A stretch of DNA of 64,000 bases from a virus (IMGVR_UViG_3300007539_000013:1-64000); one strand, 5' to 3'; positions 755 to 61,353 are shown, counted from the first letter of the stretch. Numbers and translations: made by a program. The notes: generated by a model not told the origin, from the letters alone.

Positions 755-1435
755 ATGACAACAAAAGTAATAGAAACAGAAGTGGCAGATGATGAATGGG
801 ATATGGAGGATTCATCACCCGAGATGGCTACAACCAAATCGGATGATTCTTTGCATGTTATAAAATTGCCAGAAGACACAGATAAAAATGGAGTGCATAC
901 CGACTTCTTGGCGCAAATCGTTGCGAAGCACTTGCACTCGAAAGACCTGGAAGCCAAGCAGAAGAAGGCTTGCCAAAAGTCAAGGCTCACAAAGCATGCC
1001 CTTGAGACCATAGATAACCTAAGCTTCTTGCCAAGTGCGGTCATCTACCAACTTGGTGCAAGGCAGGTGCGGGTCAGCGTAAAGGACGCATATCGTGCCA
1101 TTGATAAGGATAAGTTCCTTGCGATTAAGAAATATGCCCCTGAGTTTGCTAAGCAGGCATTCACTGCAGCCCCCGTGATTTCTGTGAAGAGTACTCAAAT
1201 CCCAGCGTCTGCACGCAAGGAGATTCAGGAGTGGATCGAAATGGGGAGAGCTATTCTGATGGCGCATAAAGTAGCAGAGCCAAACAATGTGATTAGCTTC
1301 ACGAACAAGTATCAGCCAAAGACAACAGTTAATAGTCTGAGACAGAAGCAGGATGTACTGGTTCAGGAGGGTCTTAACTCAGACCTACCACTCGGGACTG
1401 TTCTAACTGTAGCAAAATGTAACACGAAAGGATAA
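755..1435 (+). CDS. hypothetical protein
   Basis: AGGAGG RBS, 226-aa ORF, co-directional cluster. Confidence 0.75.
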   Translation: MTTKVIETEVADDEWDMEDSSPEMATTKSDDSLHVIKLPEDTDKNGVHTDFLAQIVAKHLHSKDLEAKQKKACQKSRLTKHALETIDNLSFLPSAVIYQLGARQVRVSVKDAYRAIDKDKFLAIKKYAPEFAKQAFTAAPVISVKSTQIPASARKEIQEWIEMGRAILMAHKVAEPNNVISFTNKYQPKTTVNSLRQKQDVLVQEGLNSDLPLGTVLTVAKCNTKG

Positions 1436-1441
1436 GTAACA
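1418..1441 (+). promoter_or_regulatory. TGTWACA-N10-TGTWACA element, copy 1
   Basis: TGTAACA CGAAAGGATA AGTAACA immediately before ATG 1442. Confidence 0.75.
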
Positions 1442-1786
1442 ATGTCATACGAATATGAATATGAACCTATTGAACTAAGGGGATACACTTACGCTTGTAG
1501 CGGTAAAGTTGAATTCACTTATGTACCCGGAGATAAAGGTGACTGGGGTTCGCAACCATTCGACTCACATGCTGAGGATATAAATATTATACTCAAAGAA
1601 GTATGGGACGAGGATGACGAGAGTGTCACCGATGAGGCAATCCTGAAAGAACTAAGGACAGCCCTAGAAAAACATTACAACAATAACCAAGACATACTTA
1701 CTGATGACTGGGAGGAGACCGCAATGGAGGTCGCAGCATCAAATAGGCATGACGAATACATAGAAAGGATGAACAGTGAGTACTGA
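1442..1786 (+). CDS. hypothetical acidic protein
   Basis: AAGGA RBS inside the 24-bp element; overlaps next gene. Confidence 0.7.
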   Translation: MSYEYEYEPIELRGYTYACSGKVEFTYVPGDKGDWGSQPFDSHAEDINIILKEVWDEDDESVTDEAILKELRTALEKHYNNNQDILTDDWEETAMEVAASNRHDEYIERMNSEY

Positions 1787-2111
1787 ACAAAGTGAACTAG
1801 AAAAAATAATCCGTGAGTATATTACCAACTGCACGGACGAGCAATTAGATGAGATTGCCCCTCATATAGTAAAGAAAGCAGACGGGCATGAGGATGCAGA
1901 GGAACTGGGCATTAAGTGGGATATAATGAATGATGAGGTAGACGCAGAAGATCTGCGTAGATACATCGCTGACTACTGGGTGAATGATGTGGGATGTGTG
2001 ACCACAAGTGTCCGTCTATTCAAGCATTGCTGGGATAGGCTATACGAAACACTAGAGTGCCAAGGGTTCCGTCGCACACCACATGGACTCACTCATGAGT
2101 CTGAACTGTAA
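1776..2111 (+). CDS. hypothetical protein
   Basis: AAGGA RBS, GTG start, tight packing. Confidence 0.65.
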   Translation: MSTEQSELEKIIREYITNCTDEQLDEIAPHIVKKADGHEDAEELGIKWDIMNDEVDAEDLRRYIADYWVNDVGCVTTSVRLFKHCWDRLYETLECQGFRRTPHGLTHESEL

Positions 2112-2130
2112 CACGAAAGGATAAGTAACA
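2107..2130 (+). promoter_or_regulatory. TGTWACA-N10-TGTWACA element, copy 2 (identical to copy 1)
   Basis: TGTAACACGAAAGGATAAGTAACA; last A is the A of ATG 2130. Confidence 0.75.
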
Positions 2131-2432
2131 TGACAACAAATAATATAGGAGTATTCGGTAAGGATAAACTAATCAGGAAGATTGCAGATCATTGCGCCAA
2201 TAATGATGGAGTCATCCACGACTCAAATCTTGATAACTTGATTAATAATCTGCGTAAGTCTGAGGCTTACAAAAATGCAAGCATTACCGATCTGTTCACT
2301 GCAGATCCCTACGAGGATGATTCGCACGACATAATTGAGCGTGCCCAAACTGATACGCAGGTACCGTCAGAGTACTGGAGGCTAACGGACTATGGTAACC
2401 AATGTATTACTCCAGGGAGGTGGTTTAAATGA
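2130..2432 (+). CDS. hypothetical protein
   Basis: ORF with RBS, ATGA coupling to next gene. Confidence 0.65.
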   Translation: MTTNNIGVFGKDKLIRKIADHCANNDGVIHDSNLDNLINNLRKSEAYKNASITDLFTADPYEDDSHDIIERAQTDTQVPSEYWRLTDYGNQCITPGRWFK

Positions 2433-2665: not shown

Positions 2666-2670
2666 ATAAT

Positions 2671-3221: not shown

Positions 3222-3439
3222 AACCAAAGCCAGCAACCAAAGAGGAGATCGAGAACCTGTTCGTTAAGCAAATGTACAAGGATAGACCGAGGGAAACCCA
3301 CACAGATAATTACACAATGGATTGCCCTGCGTGCAATGCTCCCGCTGAAGGTGAAGGCGTGTTCTTCTCCGACTCAGGTGAGTTAATTAAGAATAACTTT
3401 GTGCAATGCACGAAGTGTGACTGGCACCAAGCATCATGA
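3218..3439 (+). CDS. small zinc-ribbon protein
   Basis: CPAC...CTKC pair; GGGAGG RBS. Confidence 0.65.
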   Translation: MKPKPATKEEIENLFVKQMYKDRPRETHTDNYTMDCPACNAPAEGEGVFFSDSGELIKNNFVQCTKCDWHQAS

Positions 3440-4284
3440 AGGAATACTTCGTTGGAACAGATGACTTCCAGCGAGCCCACAAAGTGAATGCCATGATCTC
3501 GGCAAACGCTTTGGTACGGATCAACAATGGAGTCTTGCAAGTACGCAAGGCTCCGATCCGTGTGGGTCGTTGGATGATGGACTCGGGAGCATTCTCCCAA
3601 GTCACAAAGTACGGGGACTTTATTATGTCGCCCGAAGAATATGTACGCATTGCCGTACGCTTTCAGGACTGCGGTGATCTTGCTTGCATCGTAACACAAG
3701 ACTATATGTGTGAGCCTGATGTCATAAGGATGCTAAGGAACAAAGGTAAGGAAGCATCAGTGAGGATACATCAACGCAAAAGCGTGGAAAGGTATAAGCA
3801 GATTGTAATAGAAGCCGAGCGACAAGGCCTTAAGGTTCCAGTCATGCCTGTACTTCAAGGATGGGAAGTCGAGGACTACATTGAGCATTGGCACAGGTTA
3901 TGTGCGGTCAACCGACAGTTAGGTAGGAAGGGTAAAACTGTTGAGGCTTTTGGTTGGAATCATAACCAACCACGATGGGTAGGAATTGGATCCACCTGTA
4001 AGCGTAACAAGAACCCAGAGGTGGTAAGTCAAATACTTGACACCTTGCCATGGGAGTTCATCAATAGCCACGATGTGCGAATACACCTGTTTGGGTACAA
4101 GACCACCGGTCTCAAGTCCGACAAGATCAAAGATCGTATCTACTCAGCAGACTCATTCGCATACGACTTCACCAACAGACTCAATGGTGTGGTGCGTAAG
4201 CGTACAGACAGAATTAAATCAGCAAAAGAATTCGGAAACAAAATCGTACATAACAATGTACAGACCACACTTGCTTTAGCATAA
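3436..4284 (+). CDS. TGT-fold / DpdA-like 7-deazaguanine transglycosylase (candidate DNA-modifying enzyme)
   Basis: MDSGAFS, QDYMCEP, PVLQGW, VGIGSTCKR, HLFGYK and SADS motifs typical of the TGT/DpdA-like family. Confidence 0.75.
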   Translation: MKEYFVGTDDFQRAHKVNAMISANALVRINNGVLQVRKAPIRVGRWMMDSGAFSQVTKYGDFIMSPEEYVRIAVRFQDCGDLACIVTQDYMCEPDVIRMLRNKGKEASVRIHQRKSVERYKQIVIEAERQGLKVPVMPVLQGWEVEDYIEHWHRLCAVNRQLGRKGKTVEAFGWNHNQPRWVGIGSTCKRNKNPEVVSQILDTLPWEFINSHDVRIHLFGYKTTGLKSDKIKDRIYSADSFAYDFTNRLNGVVRKRTDRIKSAKEFGNKIVHNNVQTTLALA

Positions 4285-4285
4285 A

Positions 4286-4309
4286 AGTTACACGATATTT
4301 ATTGTATCA
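4286..4309 (+). promoter_or_regulatory. TGTWACA-N10-TGTWACA element, copy 3
   Basis: AGTTACA CGATATTTAT TGTATCA directly upstream of the structured element. Confidence 0.6.
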
Positions 4310-4311
4310 TA

Positions 4312-4485
4312 TTCATTCACATAGGGTTCATTGAGACTCGCTTTCTTAACCTTTAGTAGAAGGGTGTATGGCTTTTCACTTTGGGCATGCACCTGAAGGT
4401 GTCTTCGGACACAGCGAGAAGGGATAATGCGAGTACGGGCAGCAAATCCGTATGATGACCAAAAACCTGCCCTATTGTGAAATGA
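4312..4485 (+). ncRNA. putative structured ncRNA / cis-element of unknown class
   Basis: Closing stem TTCACATAGGG 4316-4326 / CCCTAT-t-GTGAA 4470-4481; ACTCGC/GCGAGT; GTGTC-TTCG-GACAC hairpin; ACCTTT/AAGGGT and TACGGG/TCCGTA hairpins. Confidence 0.6.
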
Positions 4486-4497
4486 TTTGACACATAG

Positions 4498-4521
4498 TGT
4501 TACACTTTAGTAGGTGTAACA
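4498..4521. promoter_or_regulatory. TGTWACA-N10-TGTWACA element, copy 4 (perfect 8-bp inverted repeat, 8-bp spacer)
   Basis: TGTTACAC-TTTAGTAG-GTGTAACA, 1 nt before the recombinase start codon. Confidence 0.8.
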
Positions 4522-4522
4522 T

Positions 4523-6234: not shown

Positions 6235-6236
6235 AT

Positions 6237-6260
6237 TGTAACTTAATGTTTCGTGTAACA
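6237..6260 (-). promoter_or_regulatory. TGTWACA-N10-TGTWACA element, copy 5
   Basis: Minus strand reads TGTTACA CGAAACATTA AGTTACA. Confidence 0.7.
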
Positions 6261-6270
6261 CTTTGGCAAA

Positions 6271-7179: not shown

Positions 7180-7180
7180 T

Positions 7181-10100
7181 TTAGTATCGTATTGGCACTC
7201 CGAGTAATGCCATTCTTCGCAACTGAGACATACTAGGAAGGGCTGATGTATTCCTAGATGTGCCTATTTGGTTCAGGTAAAATTCATGCAAATCTATGTA
7301 ATTTTCTAACATAACTCGATCGTCCTCATCCTGTATCTCAAGAATTCTTTTCCAATCTTGGTCGGAAATCCTACCTTTAGTTATGCCATACCTTATGTTT
7401 CTTTGCCTGAACCTTTCGTGAATGTAATCCTCTGGAGTAGTGTTGATTTTGTTTTCTTCTATGTATACCTTAGCTGCTGAAATTGCTTCTTGGTATTGCC
7501 TGAAAAATTCTGCTTTATCATTCGCATAGGCTGCCCTCTCCATCTGGCGCAGGTTTACGGAAACAGGAGATGGCTTTCCGTATCCTTTGGCGGGAGGTGT
7601 TAATGGCAGACCCATCACCCATGCAGACTTTTTAATAAGATTCTTTGCAGTGAGGTAGTCAGCTACTCTACGCTCCTCTATATCCAAGTCCATAAGGTTG
7701 GATACTACATCCATCTGCTGAATTACTGAACCTAATCCAAGTCCGTAAAGCATTGGGCGAATAACATTCCCGTAGTCTGCCTCGCCCTGGTGGTACCATG
7801 TGCCTAAAGCATCCCGCACATTACGGAATGTATTAAACATGAACAACCTACTGTCTAATGAAAATTCTTTTGCCGCACCAAATGGATCCCCTGTTGCAAA
7901 CATACTATTTGCGACCTCAAACCCCATACCATACACATTACCAGCCCGTGCCAACCTAGAGGTAACTGCATAGATTGTGGACTCCTCATTGCTCATTGCG
8001 AATAATGGGCCGAATACCGGCATCATTGCCCACGGAGTAAGCGGAGGTAAGTTATTTGGCTTACCTACGATCTCCTCGTCATACCAATCTACTAGAAATG
8101 CTGCTGATAATCCCAATGGCATATACACCGCAGATACCAACCCTAGATACTTAAGGAATGCCATGTATGTACCTAGCTCATCTCCTGCCTCCCTACCTAT
8201 AAAGCGATTTGTCTGTGCCATCTTCCAGATTGGCCAACCGAGGAAAATGCCTGCGTAACGCATTAATCCATTATTATATAAAAGTGGAATCTTAGCATTA
8301 AATCCTTCACCAGACACATTGGACATACCAACCTGATTCATCATTAACACGGTATTATGCTCTAATACTGGTGCGTCTGGGTTGATTTGTTTCCGTTGTA
8401 GAAAGTCGTAAGCAAGTCGGGACATACTTGAGGTGCCATTCTCAAGTAGCATATTATTCATATTGTTCCACCCGTCACGCTCACCAATTACCATCTCAGC
8501 TGTCTTGGAGTTATTCATCCCTAACTGCTCTGCGGTGAATTCGATTGGCTCCATAATGTCCAATCCCTTCTCCTCGATGAACTTTGCGATCCTAAGTATT
8601 TCTGCCTCGTATGCCATGGCAGTACCTACGCCTACGGAGTGGTTGATTATACCATTCGCCCACGGGAACAATCCAGTAAACAAAGTAAAAGCATCAAAGG
8701 ACTGCCTGGTTCCATCAGGATTTAGTCTGCGACTATGAGCGATGGCATTTTTAACATTCCTTATGCCCTTTTTGAAGGAATTCATTTTTGTGCCACTTAC
8801 CATTTCTCCATTTGGCCCTACCTGTGTAAGTAGCTCCTGCAGGCTCAAGTTCATTTCTTCCGTACGGAAGTGTGTACTGTTTAGGGATCGGGCAATCCTG
8901 CTTGTCTTTGGTAAATTATAACCAAATGCCTCAATGATTCCACCGAAGGATTGGTTGAACATATTTGCAAGGGCGGCTCCAGTTGCCTTACCTGACATTC
9001 TATTCAATCCACGAAACGCCATTGGGAACTCACCCAATGCCAATGTCTGCCAAAATGAAGACTTGGGGTTATCAAGAACCATTAATGACTGAGTTCCTAG
9101 TAGCTCAAGCAAAACATTAGCGTCACCATAAGCACCGGATATATTACCCTTGCCGTAGTACTGACCAAGTTGGTCAAACACCTTACCGAACTCACGATAG
9201 GTTACTGCATCACTATACAATCTTTCAAATGCCAGCTTTCCGTCCTTCTCACCATAGTCCCGCTCAAGTATTTTATACGCATCACGCTTTACTGCGTTTG
9301 AGTAAAACATCTGAGGTGCCTCATGAACACCCCTTGTGGCTATAGTCATTACATTATTAAATGTGGAGGCACGACCACCCATCTTATCATAAAAGCCCTG
9401 CCCTACATCATTTATTTTCATCCCGTTCCTACCAAACACAGAGGTGGCAACCATCATAGCCAGTCGTATTTGGGTGCTTACTTCGTCATGAATATCGTAG
9501 TAGAAGAACTTCTTGGGTAGCTTGGACTCAATTTGCCTTGAGTCAAGTGATCGGGGTGTATTCTTAATTGCCTCACTTGCCTTCATGACATTGTGAGCCT
9601 CGTTTGCTACTTGATTGTCAGCTCGTACCAGCCTTTTGTACCTAGCATCTAGTTGCTTTGAGAAACTTGCATACCACTCAAACTTTGATTTCTCGACCTG
9701 CTCTGCATCAAGTCCGTCAGTATCTGAGAAGTTATCAAATATATTATCAAGGAAGGTTATCATATCTCCCCCTGACTCTTTCCATGCTAATGCAAATTGG
9801 GAGTTTCCGACAGGGGCATTATCTGGCCCACTAAAGGCAGACCTACGAACCCCACCAAGAAGGAAGGGTTCAACAAACTCTTTTACAACTTGAGGGTCAC
9901 CGTACAATAAGTTGTACATCTCGGTAACAGTTTCTAGGTCATTCTCAGCTGCGCTATTAGCAAGATTCTCCAATAGCTTTATTCGATTCCTGTCAGAATT
10001 AGAGTCTTCCTTGAGTTTATTTCTCATCATTAAAACAACCGATGAGATCGCATGATTGTTTAATGTTCTACTCCATGTTGAAAAACCGAGATCGATTGGT

Positions 10101-13100
10101 CTTCTGTAAAAGTCAACTTGTGATCCATCTAGTTCTGACTGAACCGTAACCTCGTCATCACGAATACGATTACCAAGAATCTCCTCGTTTACATAACGCA
10201 TATAGTTCTTGGCTTCTATTTCCTTCTGTACCCAAAACCGAACTGCATCACGGGCACGATTCATGTCTTTAACATTTTCGAGGTGCATGGGTCTTTCTTC
10301 CCGCATCCACTTCCACATTTGCGAAAAAGCTTCTTCTTCCTGTCCGTAGTACTCGGGATGATTATCAAACCAAAATGCCATATCTTGCCACACCTCTGTG
10401 TATAGGCTCGGGCCATCTAAGCCTAGCTCTTTAGATACCCTAACAAACGCACGGTTTGCTGATATGGAATATGCTTTAACTTTACTTTGTAAGTCACGGG
10501 TTTGCCCAATTACCTGAGTAATAAGTCCGGCAATCTTTTTACCAGCAGGGCCAAACCTACCCATTGCCTGACCAACTGACTCAAGGGATCCAAGATGCCA
10601 ATTTTTTCTTTGCGTAAAGTATTTATCCTTGAGCCCGCCCGTTGGATCCATAAGTGCAACCTGTGCGTTCCTTGCCATGTTTCTAAACCATGGCTGGTCT
10701 CCATACTTCTGAACATTTACAGGATCACGACTGAACATGAGCGTTTCAGATATAGCCTTATTAAAGTCTGGGTTATCAATAGCCCCATTCTTATCTAAGC
10801 TGATAACCATTGTCTTCTTCGTGTACCCCCCGGTAGGCTTGCCATCCGCGTCACGATTTAGTCGCATTACTAAGATCGGTTCACCATCCCCAACATTGGT
10901 AGGCTCAAGCTCACCCATAGCTGCACGAAGACGCTTATACCTAGGGTTAATTGAGTTATGCAACTCCTTGAGCATTACCTTTTCCTTCTGAAGGAGGGTC
11001 TGGAAGTCTACTAAGTCTAAGAGCTTTAACCTCTTTTTCTTTAATCCATTAAGTCTTTTCTCAAGGGATGACTCATATGAGAATCCATCTGATGTGAGGT
11101 CAGCTCTGGTAGCAGTAAATATTTTATTTATATCCCTAAGTAGCTTGGTTCGCTCAGCACCCTCCCCTAGTTTGTCGGTAGACATTCTATACAGGAATAA
11201 GCTTGAGTCCTTTTGCGTTTGAAGAACCTTAACTATAGCCATCCTTAGGTACTTACTCTCAGGTGTGTCTTTCGAGAACTTAGGGTCATTAAGATTCTCA
11301 ATAGCATCATTCATCTCCTGAGGATTAAAGTCATCAAATGTATCAATATCTGTTACCTTACTTAGAATCTTTCCGACATCCCTAGATGTTACGCCATCAA
11401 GATCCATTGCGGTCTTGCGGATTGGCTTCTTTACCAGTTTTGCAATATCTTCAATCTGCTCCCTAGTTAGCTTTTTCATGCTAATAGTAACAGTCTTTGC
11501 GATGTCCTCTGGACTAGCTAGTCCTCGCTTCTGAACATCCTTAAACATCTCGTTGAATTCTTCGATCTGCTGATCTGTGTCCTTAATCTGACTTTCTGCG
11601 TAGTCCAGCCTATCTAAGATGCCAGGGACTTTCTGCTTCCTACCCCTTAACATCATTGAGATGAGGTCAATAGCTTGATTGGTGGCGTGAGTTCTTGTTA
11701 CTTGATTCCTGCCTTGATCTCCAATCCTTATAGATTGCGGATCCTCGATTCCTTGGCTTATTCTTTTATAGTACTTCTCATTACCAACCTTGCCGGGTGC
11801 ATACTTATTTATAAAGTCTTCTGGACTTTCTGTGACCATGCCTTTAGCGGCTAAGTTATTGTATGCTCGTGATAACAATGTAACCACCTCATTAATAGCA
11901 GCTACATCTCCTTCTTGAAATACACGCTCAGAGGCATCTGGGGTGGGGACTGCTTTGAGTGATGCATGGTTAAACTTATAAATATGCTCAAACTGCGTAG
12001 AAAACATCTCAGCTAAATTAGACCCAGCCTTACTGAACACTTCCCTTAATACAGGAAATAATCTGTAATCTAATCTCCATGCGTTATCTGCCATCATGCC
12101 CTGGAAATCAAGAGCGGGATGACGCATAGCTTTCCCCTCGGCTATGCCATTTTTATATTCTTCCAACCTCTCGCTGTACTCACTTGAAGAACTAGCATCA
12201 AATATTTCTTCCGAGGCTTGCGAAGTCACCTCTCCTGCCTTGTGATTATATACAAGACTAGCGAGGTCGGGGTGCATATTTTTTCGGTCAGCACTAATTA
12301 CTCGACCAGATATAGAAGCTAATGCTGATATTTTCCTTAAGTTTTCAAATAATTCTTTAAGCGCACTCCTCTCATGGGGAAGCAAGGTATATCCGTAGGT
12401 CAGATTCCCTTGATCTAAAACTTTTTGTATATCCTTATATCTGGTTGCCAATAAAATCATATGGGCGCCCATATTGGGATTTATTTTACCAATATTATTG
12501 ATCTCCCTGAACTGTTTAAATGCTGCCGTATCTTCAAGGCCAGGCATAAGATACCTTAGGCTTTCCTCATTAAACCCACCTGGGTTTCCATCTATTTTAT
12601 CAACAGCATGCTGTATTTCATGCACAAGTGTTCTAGTAAGGTACGCAGAATAAGCATCCCTTTTTGCTGCGGAGTCTATGCCATACTCCTTAAGGGTATC
12701 CATGTCTATGTCCGTTGCAAAATGGCCATCAGGCTCCAATCTACTTCCGATAAGCATTGGAGAATCCTTAGTCCCCTTTCTTATTTTAATAACACCACCA
12801 CCATATGATCCCAAGGCTTCCATGTCCTTGAAAATGACGGGCATGCTTTCTAATTCTGGATACGATTGAAATAGTTCCGGCCAATCAATTAAGGTGCCTA
12901 AGGTAAAGTTATCGTCAGGTAACTTGTCACCGGACTTCAGGTCTATTAAATCTGTTCCATCATGCAAGATGCTACCCTGCATCCTCATGTTGGTTGGGTC
13001 TATTAGAACTCTCGTTGTTCCATCGAACCATTCGAATGAATATTCTGCCCCTAACGCTTGAATTGCCCCCTTGCCACCAAGCATGTGGAGCTGACCAGTA

Positions 13101-26310: not shown

Positions 26311-26334
26311 TGTTACAATTTAATTCGTGTTACA
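26311..26334 (-). promoter_or_regulatory. TGTWACA-N10-TGTWACA element, copy 6
   Basis: Minus strand TGTAACA CGAATTAAAT TGTAACA, 10 nt before ATG 26300. Confidence 0.8.
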
Positions 26335-26341
26335 GATTTCG

Positions 26342-26563
26342 TCAAGATGCCAAACCTGCTTCAAAGTCAGATAAATCACCAACTTGTACATCTCCGTATG
26401 TTTTGTCGGTGATCGCCAAGTCCCCAATGGTTACATTTTCATTGAATGTATTTGATAGTCCAGTCCACGTGTTTGTCCCTGCAAGGAGTTCTGTCTTCCC
26501 GAGTTCTACTTTGTCGGCTACCGCCTCACCCATTTGATATAGTACTATGCTTGGATCGCTCAT
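26342..26563 (-). CDS. small virion/fibre-associated protein
   Basis: SIVLYQMG...GDLSDFEAGL motif shared with neighbouring genes. Confidence 0.65.
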   Translation of the reverse strand: MSDPSIVLYQMGEAVADKVELGKTELLAGTNTWTGLSNTFNENVTIGDLAITDKTYGDVQVGDLSDFEAGLAS

Positions 26564-33823: not shown

Positions 33824-34392
33824 GATGCGAAATTCGCAGTTAGGTTTCTAGCTTCCGACATCGTAATCGTTGTGGTTGCTGTGTTTGATTCACCTGCAAG
33901 TAATCCAGTCCACCCGGAGAATGTATATGGGCTGGATGCAACAGCAGATATTTCAACCTGCTCGCCATCTGGATATGAATTGTAATTTCTGTCCGATCCT
34001 GTGATTGAGGCTGACCCACCTGTATTTGCTGTTACAGTAAGCTCAAATAGCTGATTAAATACGTCCCCATTTATCCCTGCTTGAAAGTATGCGAGGGCAT
34101 TATCCTCAAGCAAATCATGATGATACATAAGGTAATCTATTGCATCACCTGCTGTTTCTATAAAACTAGGGAATAGGTTAGATCCATCATTTGACCATTC
34201 GGTACCACCCAATCCCTCGAGATAAGAAAGTTCAGACCACTTACTTGTGCCGTCTCCTAGTTTTAATTTGTTAAGATTTGTATTATAAGCGGGCTCCCCG
34301 GCCATCAAAACAGGATCATACTGCTCCCACTCCTGTGTACTCCCCTTTCGAAATGTTATTCGAGCGGTTACAAATCTATTCGGCTGAGGCAT
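33820..34392 (-). CDS. Mtd-N/hyaluronidase-N domain plus InlB B-repeat-like domain protein
   Basis: FRKGSTQEW...PVLMAGE...KLGDGTSKWSEL; YTFSGWTG...LTANF. Confidence 0.8.
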   Translation of the reverse strand: MPQPNRFVTARITFRKGSTQEWEQYDPVLMAGEPAYNTNLNKLKLGDGTSKWSELSYLEGLGGTEWSNDGSNLFPSFIETAGDAIDYLMYHHDLLEDNALAYFQAGINGDVFNQLFELTVTANTGGSASITGSDRNYNSYPDGEQVEISAVASSPYTFSGWTGLLAGESNTATTTITMSEARNLTANFAS

Positions 34393-34415
34393 GTTACAAT
34401 ATTATTCGTGTTACA
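34392..34415 (-). promoter_or_regulatory. TGTWACA-N10-TGTWACA element, copy 7
   Basis: Minus strand TGTAACA CGAATAATAT TGTAACA; last A is the A of ATG 34392. Confidence 0.8.
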
Positions 34416-41039: not shown

Positions 41040-41063
41040 TGTTACATTATAATTCGTGTGACA
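41040..41063 (-). promoter_or_regulatory. TGTWACA-N10-TGTWACA element, copy 8
   Basis: Minus strand TGTCACA CGAATTATAA TGTAACA, 3 nt before ATG 41036; contains TATAAT. Confidence 0.75.
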
Positions 41064-41264
41064 CTAACTGTCCAACTCATTCACCTTCGCGACAAGCTCA
41101 TTTATCTTACCTCGCAAAAGCTCGAAGTTATTATCAACTTGCTCAAATGTCAGGGGCTGGTCTTCTCCAGCTGCGTTTTCATTATCTTTGCGAAGAAAAA
41201 CACGCTTGTCTGCAATAGAGTCAGCGTAATCATCTCCATTCGATCCTAATGTCTCAATAGCCAT
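41064..41264 (-). CDS. small fibre-anchor-motif protein
   Basis: PLTFEQVDNNFELLR, matching the N-terminus of fibre 25086..26300. Confidence 0.65.
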   Translation of the reverse strand: MAIETLGSNGDDYADSIADKRVFLRKDNENAAGEDQPLTFEQVDNNFELLRGKINELVAKVNELDS

Positions 41265-44273: not shown

Positions 44274-46196
44274 TTAAGTGGTGATGTACTTAGACCAGTT
44301 AGTCCTACCAAGATTTGCGTCGAAATTTTCAACGATCAAGTGGCGGGCAGGTACATCCATCATGGTTGTCCACTTGGTGGAACGGAGCGAGTACTCAGTT
44401 TCCTTGTGGGCCATACGACATTTGTATGATTCCATGACTTCGGGTTTTGGCCATTTGCGGGTAACGCTATTGGTTCCAGCGATACCAATTTTTACATCAG
44501 ACCAATCAATGAACCACATCGCACGATTAACTTTCGTGTATGTATCCATAGATGATCCTTCATAACCACCGCCGGCTCCATCGTTATCGAGTAGGACATT
44601 TGTTCCGGAACGCTTTCCATCAACGCCTACGATTTCGCCGCCTTTTGAAGCGTTGGAATCAGATCCATCGCCAAGGAAGAAGTTTGATTGGTGGTTAAGG
44701 ATGTCATCAAAGTATGGGTCATGAAATACCGCAAACTGACAACCAACCTCAGGAAGATCAAACATCGAGTAGTTAAATAACAAGATGCCATTATGGGTAA
44801 TCTGCTGATTGATTTGAGCGTGACGATCTAACCCCCATCCATAGCGTTGCTTGTAGTATTGATTAAATACCTCAAACAATTTGTTGTAGGTAAACCGGTC
44901 GGTCATACAATCAACAACGCTAACAGTAGAACCATCTTGCTCGCGGTTGCGTTTAAGATAGTAAATGTCGGCTTGAAGATCCTCAACGGTGTAAACTCCA
45001 CCACCCTTACTTACTACACGATTAGACTCAGCCAAGAGTGCTTTAATACCAAGAGCATTAGATTTATACTCAAGCGTGCATGTAGGGTCTTCTGGGTCGG
45101 TAACCGCAGGAAGCTGCATGTAGGTTTCTGGAGTTTGCTTGTTACTAATTGGTTGATTGAACCAAGTGGAACGTAACCATTGATCCTGACTTGCTTGTGC
45201 AGCAATTTTGTTTTGCTCGGCAAGTGGTTGATAAACCATGGACTTAAGATATGGATTCACATCTCCGTTCATGATTTTGGACAATGTTTCTTTGTAAGCC
45301 TGGTCAACAGCCCGGGACTCACGAGTGGTTTGCAACCAATTAACTACAAGCTTTACGCTCAAGTCGGTTGGTTGGTTGTTACACCAGTCCTCAAAGTCAT
45401 TAACATTATTTGCAATGGTCTGAACGGTTCCGTACTCAGGCTTATACTGTGCAGATAAAGCAGCTTGCTCAATCTCAGCAGCGGTTCCACTAGGATTGCC
45501 ATCCCACGCAGTTTGACTTGCATAGCTAGGTGCAATGTTTTTACCAATAGGACGAAGGACAACCTCTGCTTCAGCAAATGAAGAATTTGCAACATTAGCA
45601 GCAGAAATAATTTGGAACTGAACTTCGATTGGCTCCTTGGTGGCAGTATCCCACCAATTAACAATTACAAATCCACCAGTAAGGAAGTAACGCTCGATAT
45701 GATCGATTGGGGATGCCCAGTCAGATGCACCAAGGTTTACTTTTACCTTCCAGTCACCGAATCCACCTGCGGATGGAGCAGCCTCTCCGGTTGAAATAGC
45801 GAAGTATCCACTATTAATAACAGAGCGCTGACGGCGTTGAATGTAAGGGAGAATAATTGATTGCTCAGCAACATTAACTTTATTGATCAAAGGCTTAATG
45901 TTCGTGATCGAACTATTAAGTAGATCAACGAGTCCTCGTTGACGAACACCAAGCATGCTTGCTTCTGCTGAATTCGCGATTACGCGAGCGAGGTCAATTT
46001 CCTTATTGGAAAGTGCCTCAAATTCACCAGGGGTCAAGCCCTTGATGGATGCGTTAGTAAGAGTACAACCAGTGGAATCATCTACCTTGATGATCCGACC
46101 AAACCCTGCATCCTTAACAAGGTTTGAGCTACTAATTGCAGTCCCTGGCTCAGTTGTTACGCCGGGTACAGGAGTGTTTGGATCGTTTATAGCCAT
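44274..46196 (-). CDS. major capsid protein (640 aa)
   Basis: Follows portal and scaffold, followed by terminator; capsid-like C-terminus PARHLIVENF. Confidence 0.7.
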   Translation of the reverse strand: MAINDPNTPVPGVTTEPGTAISSSNLVKDAGFGRIIKVDDSTGCTLTNASIKGLTPGEFEALSNKEIDLARVIANSAEASMLGVRQRGLVDLLNSSITNIKPLINKVNVAEQSIILPYIQRRQRSVINSGYFAISTGEAAPSAGGFGDWKVKVNLGASDWASPIDHIERYFLTGGFVIVNWWDTATKEPIEVQFQIISAANVANSSFAEAEVVLRPIGKNIAPSYASQTAWDGNPSGTAAEIEQAALSAQYKPEYGTVQTIANNVNDFEDWCNNQPTDLSVKLVVNWLQTTRESRAVDQAYKETLSKIMNGDVNPYLKSMVYQPLAEQNKIAAQASQDQWLRSTWFNQPISNKQTPETYMQLPAVTDPEDPTCTLEYKSNALGIKALLAESNRVVSKGGGVYTVEDLQADIYYLKRNREQDGSTVSVVDCMTDRFTYNKLFEVFNQYYKQRYGWGLDRHAQINQQITHNGILLFNYSMFDLPEVGCQFAVFHDPYFDDILNHQSNFFLGDGSDSNASKGGEIVGVDGKRSGTNVLLDNDGAGGGYEGSSMDTYTKVNRAMWFIDWSDVKIGIAGTNSVTRKWPKPEVMESYKCRMAHKETEYSLRSTKWTTMMDVPARHLIVENFDANLGRTNWSKYITT

Positions 46197-46212
46197 GTTA
46201 TTATAATGTTAT

Positions 46213-46236
46213 TGTTACACACATCATCGTGTAACA
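46213..46236 (-). promoter_or_regulatory. TGTWACA-N10-TGTWACA element, copy 9
   Basis: Minus strand TGTTACA CGATGATGTG TGTAACA, 16 nt before capsid ATG, with TATAAT between. Confidence 0.8.
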
Positions 46237-50508: not shown

Positions 50509-50566
50509 TGTAACCTAATTTATATTGTAACACCCTACAAGCTGTAACTTAGGATTTATTGTAACT
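50509..50566. promoter_or_regulatory. four TGTAAC(A/C/T) boxes phased at 17 bp (element locus 10)
   Basis: Boxes start at 50509, 50526, 50543 and 50560. Confidence 0.8.
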
Positions 50567-50570
50567 AAAA

Positions 50571-52112
50571 TCAAGTTCCGATTTCTACTATCTGGCTTGA
50601 TGTTGAATCCGTGGTTATCACATGCTTGCTGTGATAAAATATAATTGGGTATGTAAGTGCATCAAAGCCATGAATATAGACTGAACGCTTTGGCTTGAAT
50701 GCGATATTTGGATCATAATGCTTGCCTGGTTTTTCGGATACCAGATTTCTAAACATCTTTAAGATATTAGTGCATTGAGACGACACGAGAATTTCTTCCC
50801 CCTGGAGGCATGCAATCATTAACCTGACCCTTGCCTCGACTGATCCACTAAATTTTGGTGCCGCACGCATTCGTATTGGACTTAACTTAAAGGTATCGGC
50901 TTTTGATTTTGATATTTCCTCTATATCCCGGACATCATAAGAGCCCGTCTTTGCCCTAAATTGATTAAATGCGGAGTTATCTGATATATGGATAAATGTA
51001 AAATCATGGCTACATATTCGATTCCAATAAGCCATCTTCCTCATAACTAATGGAATCATTGTGGTGTATGGTAGTTTTTTGTTTATGACCACCATTTCAT
51101 CAAACACCACCCATAGATTCTTATCTGCACCAGGTAAGTTTTGCATGAAGATTATAGCATTATTGACAGAACCTGGATCCCATCCGCATATTATCGGATA
51201 TTTTGTGTTTGGTATTATCCCTGTCTTTGCATCTCCTCTTACATGTAATGTTTTATTAAAGTAAGGGCCGAAAATTGCATCTCCCGCAGGGCGATCAATC
51301 CACTCCCCTCTCACCATCCTAGCTTCCTCTACAGGGTCGCTTTTAACGGCTTCTAGGATTCGGTCATAATAGCCAAGTGGCAAATTATCTACATTTTCTT
51401 TAATTGGAACATGGTAGGTCGAGTAGTCGTTGTTCCAGTTGCCGTCAGCATCATAGGGTTCTTCAAAAAACCTTTTATAAACCCAATGAGATGGCCCATC
51501 GGGATTGCAAGCTGCTAAATATTGTTGTGGCCCATGAATTCCTTGGCGCCTACCTAACTGCTGAACTACAGCATTAAAATAATCAGATGTATCCAAATTG
51601 GTAAGCTCATCCACAAACACAAGGCTAGGCTCAAAACCTTTTATCCTGTCCTTAATAAAAGCACCATAAGGAACAGATATAAGTACTACCCGAGAATGAC
51701 CTCCGTATCTATTTTCTATATCTATGTATAAGTTCTTCTGCGTATCTTGTCGCTCATCCGTATGTACCAATCCTATTCCCTCTACCCACTCGGGTAGTAT
51801 TTCTACCTGTAGTTTATGCCAGACACCACCAAGGGTAGCTTGTGATCTAACGCCAACTATAATTAATGCGAGTGCATTAAAATTTTCATAGCAGTGACGA
51901 ACGAGCTTATGGCCACCGAGTGAAAAAGTCTTTCCGGAACCCCGTTCACCATAAGCAAGTATATACTTTGCAGGATCATCAAATATACGTTGCTGAGTAG
52001 GACTGAGCGAAGGAGACCAGTTAGAAACCTCTGCTTCTTCGCCATTTTCATCATCTATTGCTTGGGCTAATCGCTCAGCTAGTACCTTGTCCTTCAGCTT
52101 CTTCGTCGACAT
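50571..52112 (-). CDS. terL: terminase large subunit
   Basis: Walker A GERGSGKT, Walker B VFVDE, ACNP, nuclease GWDPG and HGFDAL. Confidence 0.93.
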   Translation of the reverse strand: MSTKKLKDKVLAERLAQAIDDENGEEAEVSNWSPSLSPTQQRIFDDPAKYILAYGERGSGKTFSLGGHKLVRHCYENFNALALIIVGVRSQATLGGVWHKLQVEILPEWVEGIGLVHTDERQDTQKNLYIDIENRYGGHSRVVLISVPYGAFIKDRIKGFEPSLVFVDELTNLDTSDYFNAVVQQLGRRQGIHGPQQYLAACNPDGPSHWVYKRFFEEPYDADGNWNNDYSTYHVPIKENVDNLPLGYYDRILEAVKSDPVEEARMVRGEWIDRPAGDAIFGPYFNKTLHVRGDAKTGIIPNTKYPIICGWDPGSVNNAIIFMQNLPGADKNLWVVFDEMVVINKKLPYTTMIPLVMRKMAYWNRICSHDFTFIHISDNSAFNQFRAKTGSYDVRDIEEISKSKADTFKLSPIRMRAAPKFSGSVEARVRLMIACLQGEEILVSSQCTNILKMFRNLVSEKPGKHYDPNIAFKPKRSVYIHGFDALTYPIIFYHSKHVITTDSTSSQIVEIGT

Positions 52113-53342: not shown

Positions 53343-53366
53343 GCTTACACGAAATTTTATGTAACA
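53343..53366 (+). promoter_or_regulatory. TGTWACA-N10-TGTWACA element, locus 11
   Basis: GCTTACA CGAAATTTTA TGTAACA upstream of the late operon. Confidence 0.65.
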
Positions 53367-53406: not shown

Positions 53407-54411
53407 CTATTGGATACTAAAGTATTGATCGGCCATTTCCTTATCTACCCTGTTGTTTTTATAGTTCTTAAGAAAAGTCTCGGAAGACATATGGCCCATG
53501 GTATCTAATGCCCACTCAAATGATTTCCAGTAGCCATAACTACCAAATGAGTGCCTGGCACCATTAGCTGGGTAATTAAACCCTACCCTACGGGACGCCC
53601 ACCTTCGCGCCAAGTTAAGTGCGTTGTAGGACGGCATAACTAAACCTTTAGACTTTGGTACCCAAGACCACAAATTCTCGGGTGGCTTGATCCATCGCTC
53701 CCTCCCCGTCTTAGTATGCTCAGCCTTTAGTCCTATAGATTTGCCCCATCGGATGTCTGAATATTTCAAGGTTGCCATTTCCACCTCGGGTCTAATTCCC
53801 GTGAATAACATAATCGCTAGTCCAGGTTTATACTTTTCGTCTATTTCATCTAAAAGTGCCTTAGCTTCATCAACCTGTAAAATACCGGGCAACTTAAAAA
53901 AAACTTTTTTTGTGTTCATTTTTAGGTCTGGATTAGTTTGCATATACCAATCTGATGCATTTTGCCCGTAACCCTTTTTCGCACACCATGCCATGAAGAT
54001 ACGAACAGCCCGTCCATATTCTTTTTTAGTTTTCTCCGACCAGTCCCCTGAGTTCACATACTTCTTGTACGACTCCACGGTTACATCTGATACTAACCTA
54101 CCTCCACCAAACCATGTTAGGAATTTATTAACCCGCTCCTCTGTTGTGCGATAGCCTTTTTGTTTTGGTTTGGCTGGATTATAATTATTCTCAAAGTACT
54201 CCGTCAAATACTCGCTGCTTGCTACATTGAGTAATGTCTGATCTCCAACAGGTTCTTTTTTAGCGACCTCACCTAGCCAACTAACCACATCAAACGCTTT
54301 GGCTTCCATGGCTGAATTAAAATACTTTCTTCTTCGCTTCCCGTCCCTATGAACTGAAAGTATCCACTTTTGTTTTCCTCTAACCTCTCCTTTATAAATA
54401 TTGATGTTCAT
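53407..54411 (-). CDS. int: phage integrase B (tyrosine recombinase)
   Basis: TGIRP, HTKT, NGARHSF, MGH...KNY; adjacent to tRNA-derived attP. Confidence 0.92.
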   Translation of the reverse strand: MNINIYKGEVRGKQKWILSVHRDGKRRRKYFNSAMEAKAFDVVSWLGEVAKKEPVGDQTLLNVASSEYLTEYFENNYNPAKPKQKGYRTTEERVNKFLTWFGGGRLVSDVTVESYKKYVNSGDWSEKTKKEYGRAVRIFMAWCAKKGYGQNASDWYMQTNPDLKMNTKKVFFKLPGILQVDEAKALLDEIDEKYKPGLAIMLFTGIRPEVEMATLKYSDIRWGKSIGLKAEHTKTGRERWIKPPENLWSWVPKSKGLVMPSYNALNLARRWASRRVGFNYPANGARHSFGSYGYWKSFEWALDTMGHMSSETFLKNYKNNRVDKEMADQYFSIQ

Positions 54412-54412
54412 G

Positions 54413-54539: not shown

Positions 54540-54590
54540 TGGCACACCCGGCAGGAGTCGAACCTGCAACCTCCTGATCCGTAGTCAGGG
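54540..54590 (-). mobile_element. attP core: 3' part of tRNA-Arg(ACG)
   Basis: Minus strand CCTGACT-ACG-GATCAGG AGGTT GCAGG TTCGACT CCTGC CGGGTGTG CCA; no D-arm or 5' acceptor strand. Confidence 0.88.
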
Positions 54591-54600
54591 CATGATCCTC

Positions 54601-54918
54601 TTATTTACTGGGACTTGGGCTGGTGTTGCCAATTTGTTGCCAGATTAACTGTATGGATTCCATTATTTCTTCGTCATGGAAATAAACCCATGTAGCCATG
54701 CCGACATTACAGATCAGGGAGATCACCAAAATTACGCCAAGGCATAAGACCAATGTCTTAATACTTTGAGCAATCCCTTCCACCTTTAATGCAAGGTCGT
54801 GAACATCATTTAACCGAGTGCCATCCACTCTTATTTCGCCAATCTCACCATCCAGATCAGTAGACCACTCTTGGGTGTCGTGAAGAATTGTTATGTTCTG
54901 GGTGGAGGGGTTGTCCAT
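54601..54918 (-). CDS. single-pass membrane protein in lysogeny module
   Basis: LVLCLGVILVISLICNVGMATWVYF. Confidence 0.6.
   Translation of the reverse strand: MDNPSTQNITILHDTQEWSTDLDGEIGEIRVDGTRLNDVHDLALKVEGIAQSIKTLVLCLGVILVISLICNVGMATWVYFHDEEIMESIQLIWQQIGNTSPSPSK
54624..54642 (+). repeat. arm-type site pair TGTTGCCA x2
   Basis: 54624-54631 and 54635-54642, on the other side of the att core. Confidence 0.6.
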
Positions 54919-54920
54919 TA

Positions 54921-55142
54921 TTATTTCCTTTCTATATCTGCCGCAAACTTATCAATCTGCAGAGCTTTTGTTGGTTTGTAGTCATCGCTATAAATCTGCT
55001 CCAAGTATTCCACGATTGCATCCATTATGAATGCAGACGCTGATTTTTTTGTAATCGCCAGGTGATTATTCATCTTCTCCGCTAGATCTAGCGGTATCCT
55101 GGTATTTATAGCATATAGGGTGTTATTTTTATTTTTTGTCAA
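54921..55142 (-). CDS. ribbon-helix-helix regulator (repressor candidate)
   Basis: AINTRIPLDLAEKMNNHLAITKKSASAFIMDAIVEYL; TTG start. Confidence 0.7.
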   Translation of the reverse strand: MTKNKNNTLYAINTRIPLDLAEKMNNHLAITKKSASAFIMDAIVEYLEQIYSDDYKPTKALQIDKFAADIERK

Positions 55143-55222
55143 AGTAATTACTTTTTATCTTTTTGTATCACTATGTGTCAACGAAATATAATAAAATAAT
55201 TACTTTAATAATAATTTACTTT
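55141..55222. promoter_or_regulatory. divergent control region with AAAGTAATTACTTT-type operators
   Basis: Perfect palindrome 55141-55154; 13/14 copy 55193-55206; degenerate copy 55210-55222. Confidence 0.6.
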
Positions 55223-55264
55223 TTTTCTTTTCTTATCCTTTATCATCATTCATAACCCTTCAAC

Positions 55265-55498
55265 ATGAATGGGAAAAGCAAAGAATCATACTTAATGAAA
55301 GGTTCTGAAGTAATCTCCTTCCTAGGCTTAAAAGCTACGGCGGGATACAGATACCTACAGCATTTAGAAAAACATCAGATCATTCGACCAATCAAACTTC
55401 CGGGTCTTAAAACACCTAGATGGAAGCGTGAGGAGATCATCGAACTAGCCGAGACTAGGGATGATGTCGAGTGCCCTGAATTCGTAGTAAACCAATAA
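55265..55498 (+). CDS. excisionase/AlpA-like HTH protein
   Basis: LMKGSEVISFLG...RPIKL...RWKREEI. Confidence 0.75.
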   Translation: MNGKSKESYLMKGSEVISFLGLKATAGYRYLQHLEKHQIIRPIKLPGLKTPRWKREEIIELAETRDDVECPEFVVNQ

Positions 55499-55515
55499 AC
55501 CAACTGGAGGATTAT

Positions 55516-58898: not shown

Positions 58899-60264
58899 GA
58901 TTGAGACATATCAAGATTACGACGCAGAAAGAGGATTTCTTTCATGCGTAAAGGATGAGGATTCAGATACTGCATACGACAACTGGTCTTATGCAATGGA
59001 GCAAGGAATTACAGATGAGCATTTTATGAATACAGCTTGTGCTGAATTCTTCGTGGCTTTCAAGCTAGCTGAAAAAGAAGATGACTACGGAATGTTCGGT
59101 GCGATGAATCGCCTACCAAAAGACTGGAAAGAAAATAATACAAATTTTGTGAGCCATGTATTGTTTTGCTGTGAAACCCCAGTTCGTGGCAAAGAGTGGG
59201 TGGATCGATTGGTTAAGGCTCACAAGTGGAGAAGACTCCAAAGACTTTCTTTGAAGATTTCCGATATGGTAGGTGAAGCAGGAAAACTAGATGACCCAAC
59301 CAATAGTGCAGTAAAGATCGAGGAGGAGATAACCGATTTAATCGAACCGAATAGTAAAACTTTGGTTTCAGCAAAAGAGTTAGCCAAGGCAACCAATTTC
59401 GCAATCAAGCAAGAGCGTGAGCAAGGTGGCGCCTCCATCCAAACAAATATTAGTTATCTGAATAAAATTCTTGATGGTGGATTCAGGGCGGGACAAATGG
59501 TTGTAATCGCAGCCCGTCCATCAATCGGAAAAACAACATTCTCAATGAACATTGCACACCACGCAGGCTACAAAGGTAAGAAAATATTATTCTTTTCCCT
59601 TGAGATGTCCAATGACCAACTGGGAAAAAAATTAGCAGCGATTGACCAAGGCGTTAATTTGTCTAAATTTGCAGAAAGAAAAGAAACTGAAGAAGATCGA
59701 AGGCAGTTACAAACTGGACTTGAGAATATATCCGAGCTTCCAATTTGGGTAGATGATGACTCAGGGCAGACAATTTCTAAGATTCGTGCCCAAACAAAGA
59801 CAATGAATAGGAAGCATAACTTGGATGCCATATTCATTGATTACCTTGGACTACTTGAGGCAGAGGATAAAAGGGATGTGAGGGAACAGCAAGTTGCTCA
59901 AATCTCAAAAGCGTGCAAAAGGTTAGCTAAGGAGCTTAACTTAGTTGTATTTTTAATCTGCCAATTAAATCGAGACTCAGCAAAATCCGGTGGTGCCCCT
60001 GCCCTACACCACTTACGGGAGTCTGGTCAAATTGAACAGGATGCAGATATTGTTTTGATGTTACATCGTGAAATGAAAGCGGGTGGCGATTCACAAACAA
60101 CTGACATAATGATTCAGAAGAATCGCTTTGGCCCCATTGGTCACACGAAAGATCGTGTAACATTTGACAGATTCACTCAACGCTTCCGCGAGAAGGCACC
60201 CGAGCCTCGCTTGAATGATGATCCTGAGGTTCGATATTACGAAACAACAGGAGGTAGAATATGA
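58891..60264 (+). CDS. dnaB: replicative DNA helicase
   Basis: AARPSIGKT, FSLEM, IDYLGL, QLNR, LRESGQIEQDAD, KNRFG. Confidence 0.95.
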   Translation: MTEIETYQDYDAERGFLSCVKDEDSDTAYDNWSYAMEQGITDEHFMNTACAEFFVAFKLAEKEDDYGMFGAMNRLPKDWKENNTNFVSHVLFCCETPVRGKEWVDRLVKAHKWRRLQRLSLKISDMVGEAGKLDDPTNSAVKIEEEITDLIEPNSKTLVSAKELAKATNFAIKQEREQGGASIQTNISYLNKILDGGFRAGQMVVIAARPSIGKTTFSMNIAHHAGYKGKKILFFSLEMSNDQLGKKLAAIDQGVNLSKFAERKETEEDRRQLQTGLENISELPIWVDDDSGQTISKIRAQTKTMNRKHNLDAIFIDYLGLLEAEDKRDVREQQVAQISKACKRLAKELNLVVFLICQLNRDSAKSGGAPALHHLRESGQIEQDADIVLMLHREMKAGGDSQTTDIMIQKNRFGPIGHTKDRVTFDRFTQRFREKAPEPRLNDDPEVRYYETTGGRI

Positions 60265-60785
60265 GGTCTGCTGGCGAGTTCAGGAAAGAGCTACAGAAAT
60301 CTTATTTTTCAGTAGCAAAAGTTGCTGAGTATTTTAGAAGATTTCAAGGGATGCAGGTTCAGGTGCTTCCTAATCTTGAACTTCCAGATGGAGAAAAGAA
60401 TCGTCATCTTTACAGGGATGACGGAGACCTACTTGTAACATTCCCAGTAGAGGTAAAGAGGTCTGACATTCATACATGGACTGGGAGGCATGATTTCCCT
60501 TTCGCTAATGTACATGTAATGTCCGTTAAGCAATGGGATCAACTTAGAACAAAGCCAATCTATGTAGTTTTTGTAGATCAATACAACAGATCGGCTGCGG
60601 TCATTGAGGGATCAACCAAGGAGCAATGGAAGGTTATAGCCCAGAAAGACAAAGATGGGGTTCGTGATGCATATGTGTGCCCAAAGCATCTTTGTGAATT
60701 CATAAACCTTTCAGAAATATTTGAGGAGGATACGAAGCAACCTCCCGTATTAACCAAGGAGGCGCAAGCCTCCTTCGGTTTTTGA
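60261..60785 (+). CDS. PD-(D/E)XK-like protein
   Basis: DDGDL...VEVK. Confidence 0.55.
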   Translation: MRSAGEFRKELQKSYFSVAKVAEYFRRFQGMQVQVLPNLELPDGEKNRHLYRDDGDLLVTFPVEVKRSDIHTWTGRHDFPFANVHVMSVKQWDQLRTKPIYVVFVDQYNRSAAVIEGSTKEQWKVIAQKDKDGVRDAYVCPKHLCEFINLSEIFEEDTKQPPVLTKEAQASFGF

Positions 60786-60806
60786 ACCATAAACCAAAAA
60801 CTAAAA

Positions 60807-61139
60807 ATGCTAGGAGAAATATACACAAACATCATAGGAACGTCGGTTGCGGAAGCGGAACCAAAAGAAATCAATGGAAAGGATGGCACTAGAACGCTAG
60901 TGGTTCTCAGACTTGCGATTAACGAAAAAGTAGGAAGCGGAGAAAGAACTTCTTATATTACTGTTAATTCCTGGAGGGATAAGCTCAACGACAAGTTGAT
61001 GCAGCTAGAACTCAAAGGTAAAAATCTGAAAATCAGAGGCCCTCTTCACATTGAAGAATGGGAGAAGGATGGTCATAAGTTTCAGAAACCGGTTGTGACC
61101 ATGGACAACCTAACATTCTTAGACAAGAAAGATGCTTAG
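60807..61139 (+). CDS. ssb: single-stranded DNA-binding protein
   Basis: LRLAINE...TSYITVNSW...WEKDG...TFLD. Confidence 0.85.
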   Translation: MLGEIYTNIIGTSVAEAEPKEINGKDGTRTLVVLRLAINEKVGSGERTSYITVNSWRDKLNDKLMQLELKGKNLKIRGPLHIEEWEKDGHKFQKPVVTMDNLTFLDKKDA

Positions 61140-61329
61140 GCGTGTCTTTCGATTTGTCTATTTTCTTCCCAGGCGGGTGCGTCCTTTGTGGCGCACTCTT
61201 CTGGTGTGGGGTCGCATTTCTCGGATATTCGTTCGTGGTGGGTTGGAGAAGGTGAATCGTAAAAACGAGCTAAAGCCAAACAAGTCTCCGTTTCCACGCT
61301 ATCCATATCATCGTTGACTTTACACATAA

Positions 61330-61353
61330 AGTAACACATAACTTCGTGTAACA
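61330..61353 (-). promoter_or_regulatory. TGTWACA-N10-TGTWACA element, locus 12
   Basis: AGTAACA CATAACTTCG TGTAACA, 1 nt before ATG 61355; TTGACT at 61314. Confidence 0.7.

Follow-up and report, generated by a model that had tools for sequence, protein, structure and literature searches.

This stretch of DNA, the first 64 kb (the window) of a 79,741-bp IMG/VR phage record (IMGVR_UViG_3300007539_000013, designated G000 in comparisons), raises the question of what function is served by a 24-bp repeat, two TGTWACA heptamers 10 bp apart, whose copies mostly abut start codons. An earlier sequence-only reading listed TGTWACA-N10-TGTWACA at 12 loci. Just four copies in the window are exact (4498, 26311, 34392, and 46213; 0 expected), but all 12 loci are among the 17 matches found at ≤2 mismatches (1.35 expected). 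We favor, with moderate confidence, a joint reading in which the copies are sigma70-type promoters whose +1 coincides with the start codon or lies no more than 3 nt from it, so that the mRNAs are predicted to be leaderless or nearly so, and in which the 24-bp dyad lying over them would be the operator of one phage-encoded DNA-binding regulator, likely a repressor.

The lone heptamer also is enriched in the window (30 occurrences versus 10.3 expected). As had been reported, CGA follows the first heptamer in 10 of the 12 listed loci, and aligning all copies by this CGA gave an asymmetric, oriented consensus, tGTWACACGAA-w6-tGTAACA, in which an A occupies motif position 11 in 37 of 45 sites even though that position lies outside the search pattern. 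The 24-mer is present at 13 loci in the window and at about 16 to 17 in the whole 79.7-kb phage, including three copies past the window end (64756, 67048, and 72265); shuffles give 0 to 1. A genome scan with a position weight matrix (PWM) bore this out, with 22 strand-hits at a score of ≥15 compared with 0 to 1 in shuffled genomes. A literature search by motif sequence returned only primers as matches.

Further inspection of the copies revealed that the full form of the element is a palindrome, TGTWACACGAA-NN-TTCGTGTWACA, i.e., a 24-bp dyad with two heptamers 17 bp apart. The full palindrome is found at the integrase/virion-operon junction in relatives, within the DnaB helicase gene, and at some orthologues of the 46213 copy; palindromic copies are present where a -10 element is not needed. 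At 46196-46236 and 50509-50566, heptamers form arrays of three and four at exact 17-bp spacing, which suggests one symmetric unit per heptamer with cooperative neighbors.

The copies are closely tied to gene starts. An open reading frame (ORF) of ≥40 aa begins at motif position 22 to 45 in 13 of 16 loci, compared with 15.5% of random positions (p about 1e-8), and at motif position 24 to 31 in 9 of 16 loci, compared with 5.6%. The claim that all copies lie at gene junctions did not hold, as a conserved copy inside the DnaB gene (60139-60162) had been missed; it shows zero synonymous changes in three relatives, while the flanking codons vary.

Inspection of the flanks revealed a promoter-like arrangement around the element. 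Upstream of the motif, TTG is enriched at just three offsets, 3 nt (9 sites), 5 nt (10 sites), and 6 nt (5 sites), together 24 of 45 sites; all other offsets have 0 to 2. The distance from the first T of TTG to the A of the ATG is 35 nt in 17 of 31 sites and 35 to 37 nt in 26 of 31, and the TTG-motif gap is anticorrelated with the ATG position (r = -0.56), so that the distances compensate. When 52 sites were aligned on the ATG, TTG fell at -35 to -33, and T-12 (30 of 52), A-11 (35 of 52), and T-7 (35 of 52) stood out, which corresponds to a TAnnnT -10 element at -12 to -7 on the assumption that +1 is the A of the ATG. A -35 element at the spacing of 16 to 18 bp from the -10 element that is expected of sigma70 promoters is present in about half of the sites, TGGACA-17-TATAAT and TTGACG-17-TAAATT being examples. 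The -12 and -11 bases derive from the otherwise variable spacer, T-7 often is the conserved T of the second heptamer, and the start codon lies at motif position 24 to 28 in 46 of the 52 sites. Most copies match the sigma70 hexamers at 8 to 11 of 12 positions, and a generic sigma70 scan of 24 to 43 kb ranked the 41040 copy first and also picked up the 26311 copy. An interleaved -35/-10 pair at each copy, with its +1 at or near the start codon, would account for the abutting start codons as well as for the CGA orientation.

Most sites that abut a start codon have no Shine-Dalgarno (SD) sequence, 1418 and 2107 having an SD-like AAGGA; copies with a distal ATG have a leader that contains an SD sequence (26311 and 72265) or, at 46213 and its orthologues, is short and AU rich. 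The readings considered below could not be told apart by SD usage. Two other promoter types were considered and rejected. An archaeal TATA/B-recognition-element promoter, prompted by relatives of the large terminase subunit (TerL) in a metagenome-assembled genome (MAG) labeled "uncultured archaeon," does not fit, since positions -31 to -24 are not TATA-like and the sigma70 geometry fits; extracytoplasmic function (ECF) or sigma54 promoters do not match the geometry. One MAG with this label contains three different relatives (CALIKS010000046, 67, and 40; TerL 86, 74, and 65% identical), which probably are viral contigs binned together and do not constitute evidence for an archaeal host.

The motif occupies two or three registers relative to -35, -10, and +1, with the ATG at motif position 24/25 or 27/28. 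Multiple registers imply that the dyad is a separate element lying over the promoter and not part of the sequence read by the polymerase. A defined dyad thus overlaps core promoter elements at many promoters, as is expected of an operator.

Conservation of the element then was assessed in related phages. An IMG/VR scan for the oriented pattern returned 23 stretches, mostly relatives of this phage. Two complete 80-kb relatives (G001 and G002) and three fragments had 4 to 18 strand matches each (≤2 mismatches, palindromic sites counted on both strands), and a reversed control pattern had 0 matches in all six phage records. DNA identity over conserved genes is about 70% for these relatives, and gene order is collinear. 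Orthologous junctions in G001, G002, G004, G005, and >15 further IMG/VR contigs keep the 24-mer while spacers and flanks vary, and the motif is conserved at matching places in >20 related uncultured phage contigs. A TerL search found at least 103 related IMG/VR contigs; against cultured phages, tblastn with TerL gave only matches of 25 to 29% identity, and megablast with 20 kb gave no match.

The junction downstream of TerL was compared in about 50 relatives. There the -35 element and the ATG are fixed, and the intervening element varies by clade. The TerL stop codon lies inside a conserved CTTGA(T/C), the -35-like element of the next promoter (50566-50575), and coding and promoter constraints therefore overlap. 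In one clade (clade E: L196, L197, L199, L204, and L205; TerL 65 to 68%), a different dyad, ACCTAA-N4-TTAGGT (variant form (A/C)TGACCTAA-N4-TTAGRT), stands in place of the heptamer pair. It is found at three promoters, the TerL-downstream, 640-aa-gene, and 154-aa-gene orthologues, with the same -35/-10/ATG geometry (for example, TTGACC-17-TATTAT-6-ATG). Such an apparent regulon-wide operator swap at conserved promoters is the product expected of co-evolving regulator/operator pairs of temperate phages, and we regard it as the strongest support for the operator reading.

These observations are consistent with the following model. The host sigma70-type RNA polymerase would recognize TTGnnn at -35 and TAnnnT at -12 to -7 and start at the start codon or no more than about 3 nt from it. 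The dyad TGTWACACGAA-NN-TTCGTGTWACA would overlie every such promoter, its outer GTWACA heptamers, 17 bp apart, being kept on both sides, while at most promoters the AT-rich -10 element would substitute for the inner TTCG of the gene-proximal arm. With TTCG replaced in this way, the site looks asymmetric, the CGA side points away from the gene, and the orientation follows the gene. One sequence-specific DNA-binding protein encoded by the phage, acting as a dimer or as two paired dimers, is predicted to bind all copies, and because the operator covers the spacer, -10, and +1, it would repress by occluding RNA polymerase. About 16 scattered promoters (virion, lysis, recombinase A, the PRTRC operon, and antisense/noncoding RNA) would be silenced in the lysogen or until the right time. 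Repression by occlusion is favored by this coverage, by the tolerance of 2- to 3-bp register shifts, and by the 8 to 11 of 12 hexamer matches. The earlier suggestion that one factor serves early-region and virion genes alike is plausible.

Several observations weigh against the operator reading. About half of the sites lack TTG at -35. The -10 hexamers are poor at 1418, 2107, and 46213, and the SD-like AAGGA of 1418 and 2107 lies in the spacer; with promoter elements missing or poor and an SD-like spacer, some copies may act on read-through transcripts instead of as promoters. The statistics pool orthologous sites, which are not independent of one another. No copy of the motif lies in the lysogeny switch (55143-55264), and the copies are not a classical CI/Cro operator set. 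Finally, no repressor emerged when about 55 ORFs were searched against Pfam and PHROGs, or from six-frame searches for HTH_3 and HTH_17.

A tRNA-Arg(ACG)-like attP (54540-54615, minus strand) adjoins the integrase B gene (53407-54411). It consists of a phage-specific 5' half and a 3' half of about 48 nt that matches, without a single difference, the tRNA-Arg of an Opitutales MAG (JAQWWZ010000059); no other exact match was found among 185,579 species genomes. The host therefore probably belongs to the marine Opitutales (Verrucomicrobiota). The tRNA-Thr att of G001 was searched as a check on the host, and no genome was found. Zero matches to the motif were found in the att-sharing Opitutales MAG, a candidate host, and in 301 genomes of its order. 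This speaks against the host regulator that had been proposed, as no host regulon (LexA or other) was seen, and indicates that the factor probably is phage encoded.

Within the three complete genomes, no HTH_3 or HTH_17 domains and no sigma70_r2 domain or sigma factor were found; no T7-type RNA polymerase was found either, a weak negative because control genomes also gave nothing. The lysogeny switch is divergent, lying between an RHH (ribbon-helix-helix) gene and an AlpA-type helix-turn-helix (HTH) gene, and contains TTGTAT-18-TATAAT and three AATTACTTT repeats, in place of which G001 and G002 have different ones. This suggests heteroimmune switches within a family sharing the heptamer operator. 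The RHH protein (54921-55142), put forward by the sequence-only reading as a candidate, was rejected as the binder, since its identity among relatives is only about 35% and the switch repeats vary, while the motif is invariant. The AlpA-type HTH protein (55265-55498; a 90% homologue is named AlpA) also was rejected, as its subtype does not track operator type: the heptamer-type clade F and the ACCTAA-type clade E share one AlpA subtype, and G000 has another. The 4042-aa ORF (7181-19309, minus strand) was considered as a possible virion RNA polymerase of the N4-like or crAss-like kind, and no support for this was found. The ORF has no Pfam match, a weak "virion structural protein" PHROG match, and orthologues that are 37 to 40% identical.

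The strongest alternative, which we consider unlikely but worth weighing, is that the dyad is a positive element through which a phage activator or polymerase-specificity factor directs host RNA polymerase to the start codon, defining a delayed or late promoter class. Many copies precede virion, fiber, and lysis-type genes, and the immediate-early switch promoter lacks the motif. The sites without a -35 TTG and the weak -10 hexamers at some copies also would suit an activator. The first heptamer is centered near -21, and P1 late promoters have a palindrome near -21, the Lpa -22 box. A precedent for an element between -35 and -10 is that of Pseudomonas aeruginosa AlpA, at -25 to -20 (PMC9371919). 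Against activation, a bound protein would clash with the polymerase, as the site covers -10 and +1, and registers 2 to 3 bp apart would not be tolerable for a face-specific activator. The hexamer matches at most copies are enough for basal activity. Loading of the Q/AlpA kind needs a -10-like pause element after +1, and there is no conservation past the start codon; the search for a sigma-like protein gave none. Somewhat less likely still, and offered tentatively, is a more specific form in which a phage protein of unrecognized fold would act positively to set the start of host RNA polymerase at the AUG of about 16 genes, its recognition code having been swapped wholesale in the sister clade (GTWACA pair versus ACCTAA/TTAGGT).

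It is improbable, though worth separating from the operator reading, that some copies (1418, 2107, 60139, and the palindromic 53343 type) are stoperator-like roadblocks at which the same repressor stops elongating polymerase within operons. Those copies are without -35/-10 matches or are intragenic, yet are conserved, and orientation tracks transcription, as in the stoperators of cluster A mycobacteriophages (PMC9283540). Stoperators, however, are 13- to 14-bp asymmetric sites bound by a monomer, whereas the element here is a 24-bp dyad, and roadblocks would leave the tight coupling to start codons unexplained.

Very improbable is the proposal that tyrosine recombinase A uses the copies as core sites (9-bp inverted arms and a 6-bp spacer) for gene-boundary shuffling, or binds them as a regulator. 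The geometry TGTWACACG-AANNTT-CGTGTWACA does resemble a recombinase core site, and a copy lies upstream of the recombinase A gene in all four genomes holding that gene (orthologous copies in G001, G002, and G005). However, the central spacers differ between copies, so that strand exchange should fail; G000, G001, and G002 are collinear, with no inversions at the sites; and conservation is highest at the outer, not the inner, bases. Collinear gene order and differing spacers argue against the shuffling suggested earlier, and the -35/-10/ATG geometry would be unexplained. Least credible of all is action at the mRNA level, whether through a hairpin or through a translational operator to which a protein binds at the start codon. 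Copies directly adjoin start codons, and two (4498 and 46213) fold as stable hairpins, but for six of eight the folding is no better than that of shuffles. The heptamer centers form Watson-Crick pairs in 15 of 45 sites versus 17.4 expected, with no covariation, and fully palindromic and antisense-pointing copies exist; these results uphold the earlier preference for a double-stranded DNA site. If transcription begins at the ATG, the motif would lie outside the transcript.

The individual copies in the window are listed in the table.

Table. Copies of the 24-bp element in the window (whole-stretch coordinates; elements on the minus strand are given in the direction of the predicted promoter)
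Position	Strand	Element	Context	PWM score
1418..1441	+	copy TGTAACACGAAAGGATAAGTAACA	ATG of 114-aa gene at 1442	30.2
2107..2130	+	24-mer identical to 1418 copy	last base (2130) overlaps ATG of 100-aa gene	29.5
4286..4309	+		directly past stop of DpdA/TGT-like gene	24.2
4487..4521	+	TTGACA (4487-4492), 5-nt gap, near-symmetric copy 4498-4521 without CGA	GTG of tyrosine recombinase A at 4523	
6237..6269	-	TTGCCA (6269-6264), 3-nt gap, copy 6260-6237	ATG 6234 of conserved 41-aa ORF, then HNH gene	28.1
26311..26345	-	TTGACG-17-TAAATT interleaved with perfect copy (26334-26311)	ATG 26300 of 404-aa virion gene	34.6
34392..34415	-	perfect copy	last base (34392) overlaps ATG of 190-aa fiber-type gene	33.1
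41040..41074	-	TGGACA-17-TATAAT interleaved with copy 41063-41040	ATG 41036 of 154-aa membrane protein	30.3
46196..46236	-	three heptamers, 17-bp spacing; main copy 46236-46213, weaker 46219-46196	ATG 46196 of 640-aa conserved virion protein	
50509..50566	-	four heptamers, exact 17-bp spacing	right after TerL gene; ATG 50505 of 75-aa acidic protein	
53343..53366	+		between integrase B and head of packaging/virion operon; points antisense into integrase B	24.8
60139..60162	unstranded	palindromic copy GGTCACACGAAAGATCGTGTAACA	within DnaB helicase gene	26.0
61330..61364	-	TTGCCC (61364-61359), 5-nt gap, copy 61353-61330	ATG 61327 of 63-aa ORF	28.5

Two copies had been described as carrying CGA in reversed orientation, and neither bears this out. 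In relatives, the 53343 copy is a complete palindrome (ACACGAA-NN-TTCGTGT), which makes its orientation uninformative. At 61330, a small minus-strand ORF, or possibly an antisense transcript, lies downstream of the copy; the putative 63-aa ORF (61136-61327) is on the minus strand among plus-strand genes, and the product of this promoter may be an antisense RNA rather than the protein. The 1418 copy is without a TTG -35 element. The 26311 copy is followed by a 10-nt leader with AAGG before the ATG. In the 46196-46236 array, a 16-nt AU-rich leader precedes the ATG at 46196, and terminator-like hairpins are present upstream. About 190 nt between the copies at 4286 and 4498 (4310-4497), upstream of recombinase A, is free of ORFs, and an Rfam search of this segment gave no match. 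G001 and G002 lack both the 4286 copy and the ORF-free segment, having a gap of about 35 nt instead, and the copy may be the promoter of a G000-specific noncoding RNA.

We also noted two features of nearby genes. The gene at 3436-4284 (plus strand) is queuine tRNA-ribosyltransferase/DpdA-like (PHROG 1279, E = 3e-36), which suggests 7-deazaguanine modification of the phage DNA. In G000, a DUF5872 protein at 64166-64553 (minus strand), just past the window end, apparently is split between overlapping frames of 48 and 96 aa, both 78 to 94% conserved in relatives; in G001, no other gene comes between the 64756 promoter and the DUF5872 gene.

Taken as a whole, the proposed model provides a wiring diagram for a large family of temperate phages of about 80 kb, none of them cultured (103 or more IMG/VR contigs, nearest cultured terminase <30% identical), in which host-type promoters would give leaderless mRNAs that are all gated by a single operator. 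The clade operator swap at conserved promoters offers a natural experiment for finding the regulator and defining immunity groups.

Parts of this arrangement have counterparts in known systems. Leaderless transcripts include that of lambda cI from PRM and those of many genes in Actinobacteria and Deinococcus. As at such promoters, the putative -10 hexamer here ends 6 to 7 nt before the A of the start codon, and most sites lack an SD sequence; unlike the known cases, about 16 promoters with predicted leaderless transcripts would form a regulon within a single phage, whose host probably belongs to the Verrucomicrobiota. The operators of the P1 repressor C1 are 17-bp asymmetric sites. The candidate operator proposed here from the sequence is instead a 24-bp dyad interleaved with the -10 element of predicted leaderless promoters, and no C1 homologue was found in this phage. 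The virion genes of P1 have Lpa-dependent late promoters, whereas virion genes here bear the same site as other genes. The likeness to P1 lies in the plan: a temperate phage in which one repressor serves many operators that are dispersed over the genome and overlap lytic promoters of unrelated operons (PMC8198154).

The Q/AlpA elements (PMC9371919) and the Lpa late promoters of P1 resemble the present promoters in having a conserved protein-binding element between the -35 and -10 of a sigma70 promoter. Those systems act positively and serve a single promoter or a few; Q/AlpA depends on a pause element farther downstream, and Lpa promoters have no -35 element. In this phage a pause element is not conserved, and the site also covers -10 and +1. 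The stoperators of cluster A mycobacteriophages (L5 gp71; PMC9283540) similarly occur as tens of copies of one site at short gene junctions throughout the genome, oriented with transcription and with clade-specific specificity. They are short, asymmetric, bound by a monomer, and block elongation, whereas the dyad described here overlaps -35, -10, and +1 and is tied to the start codon.

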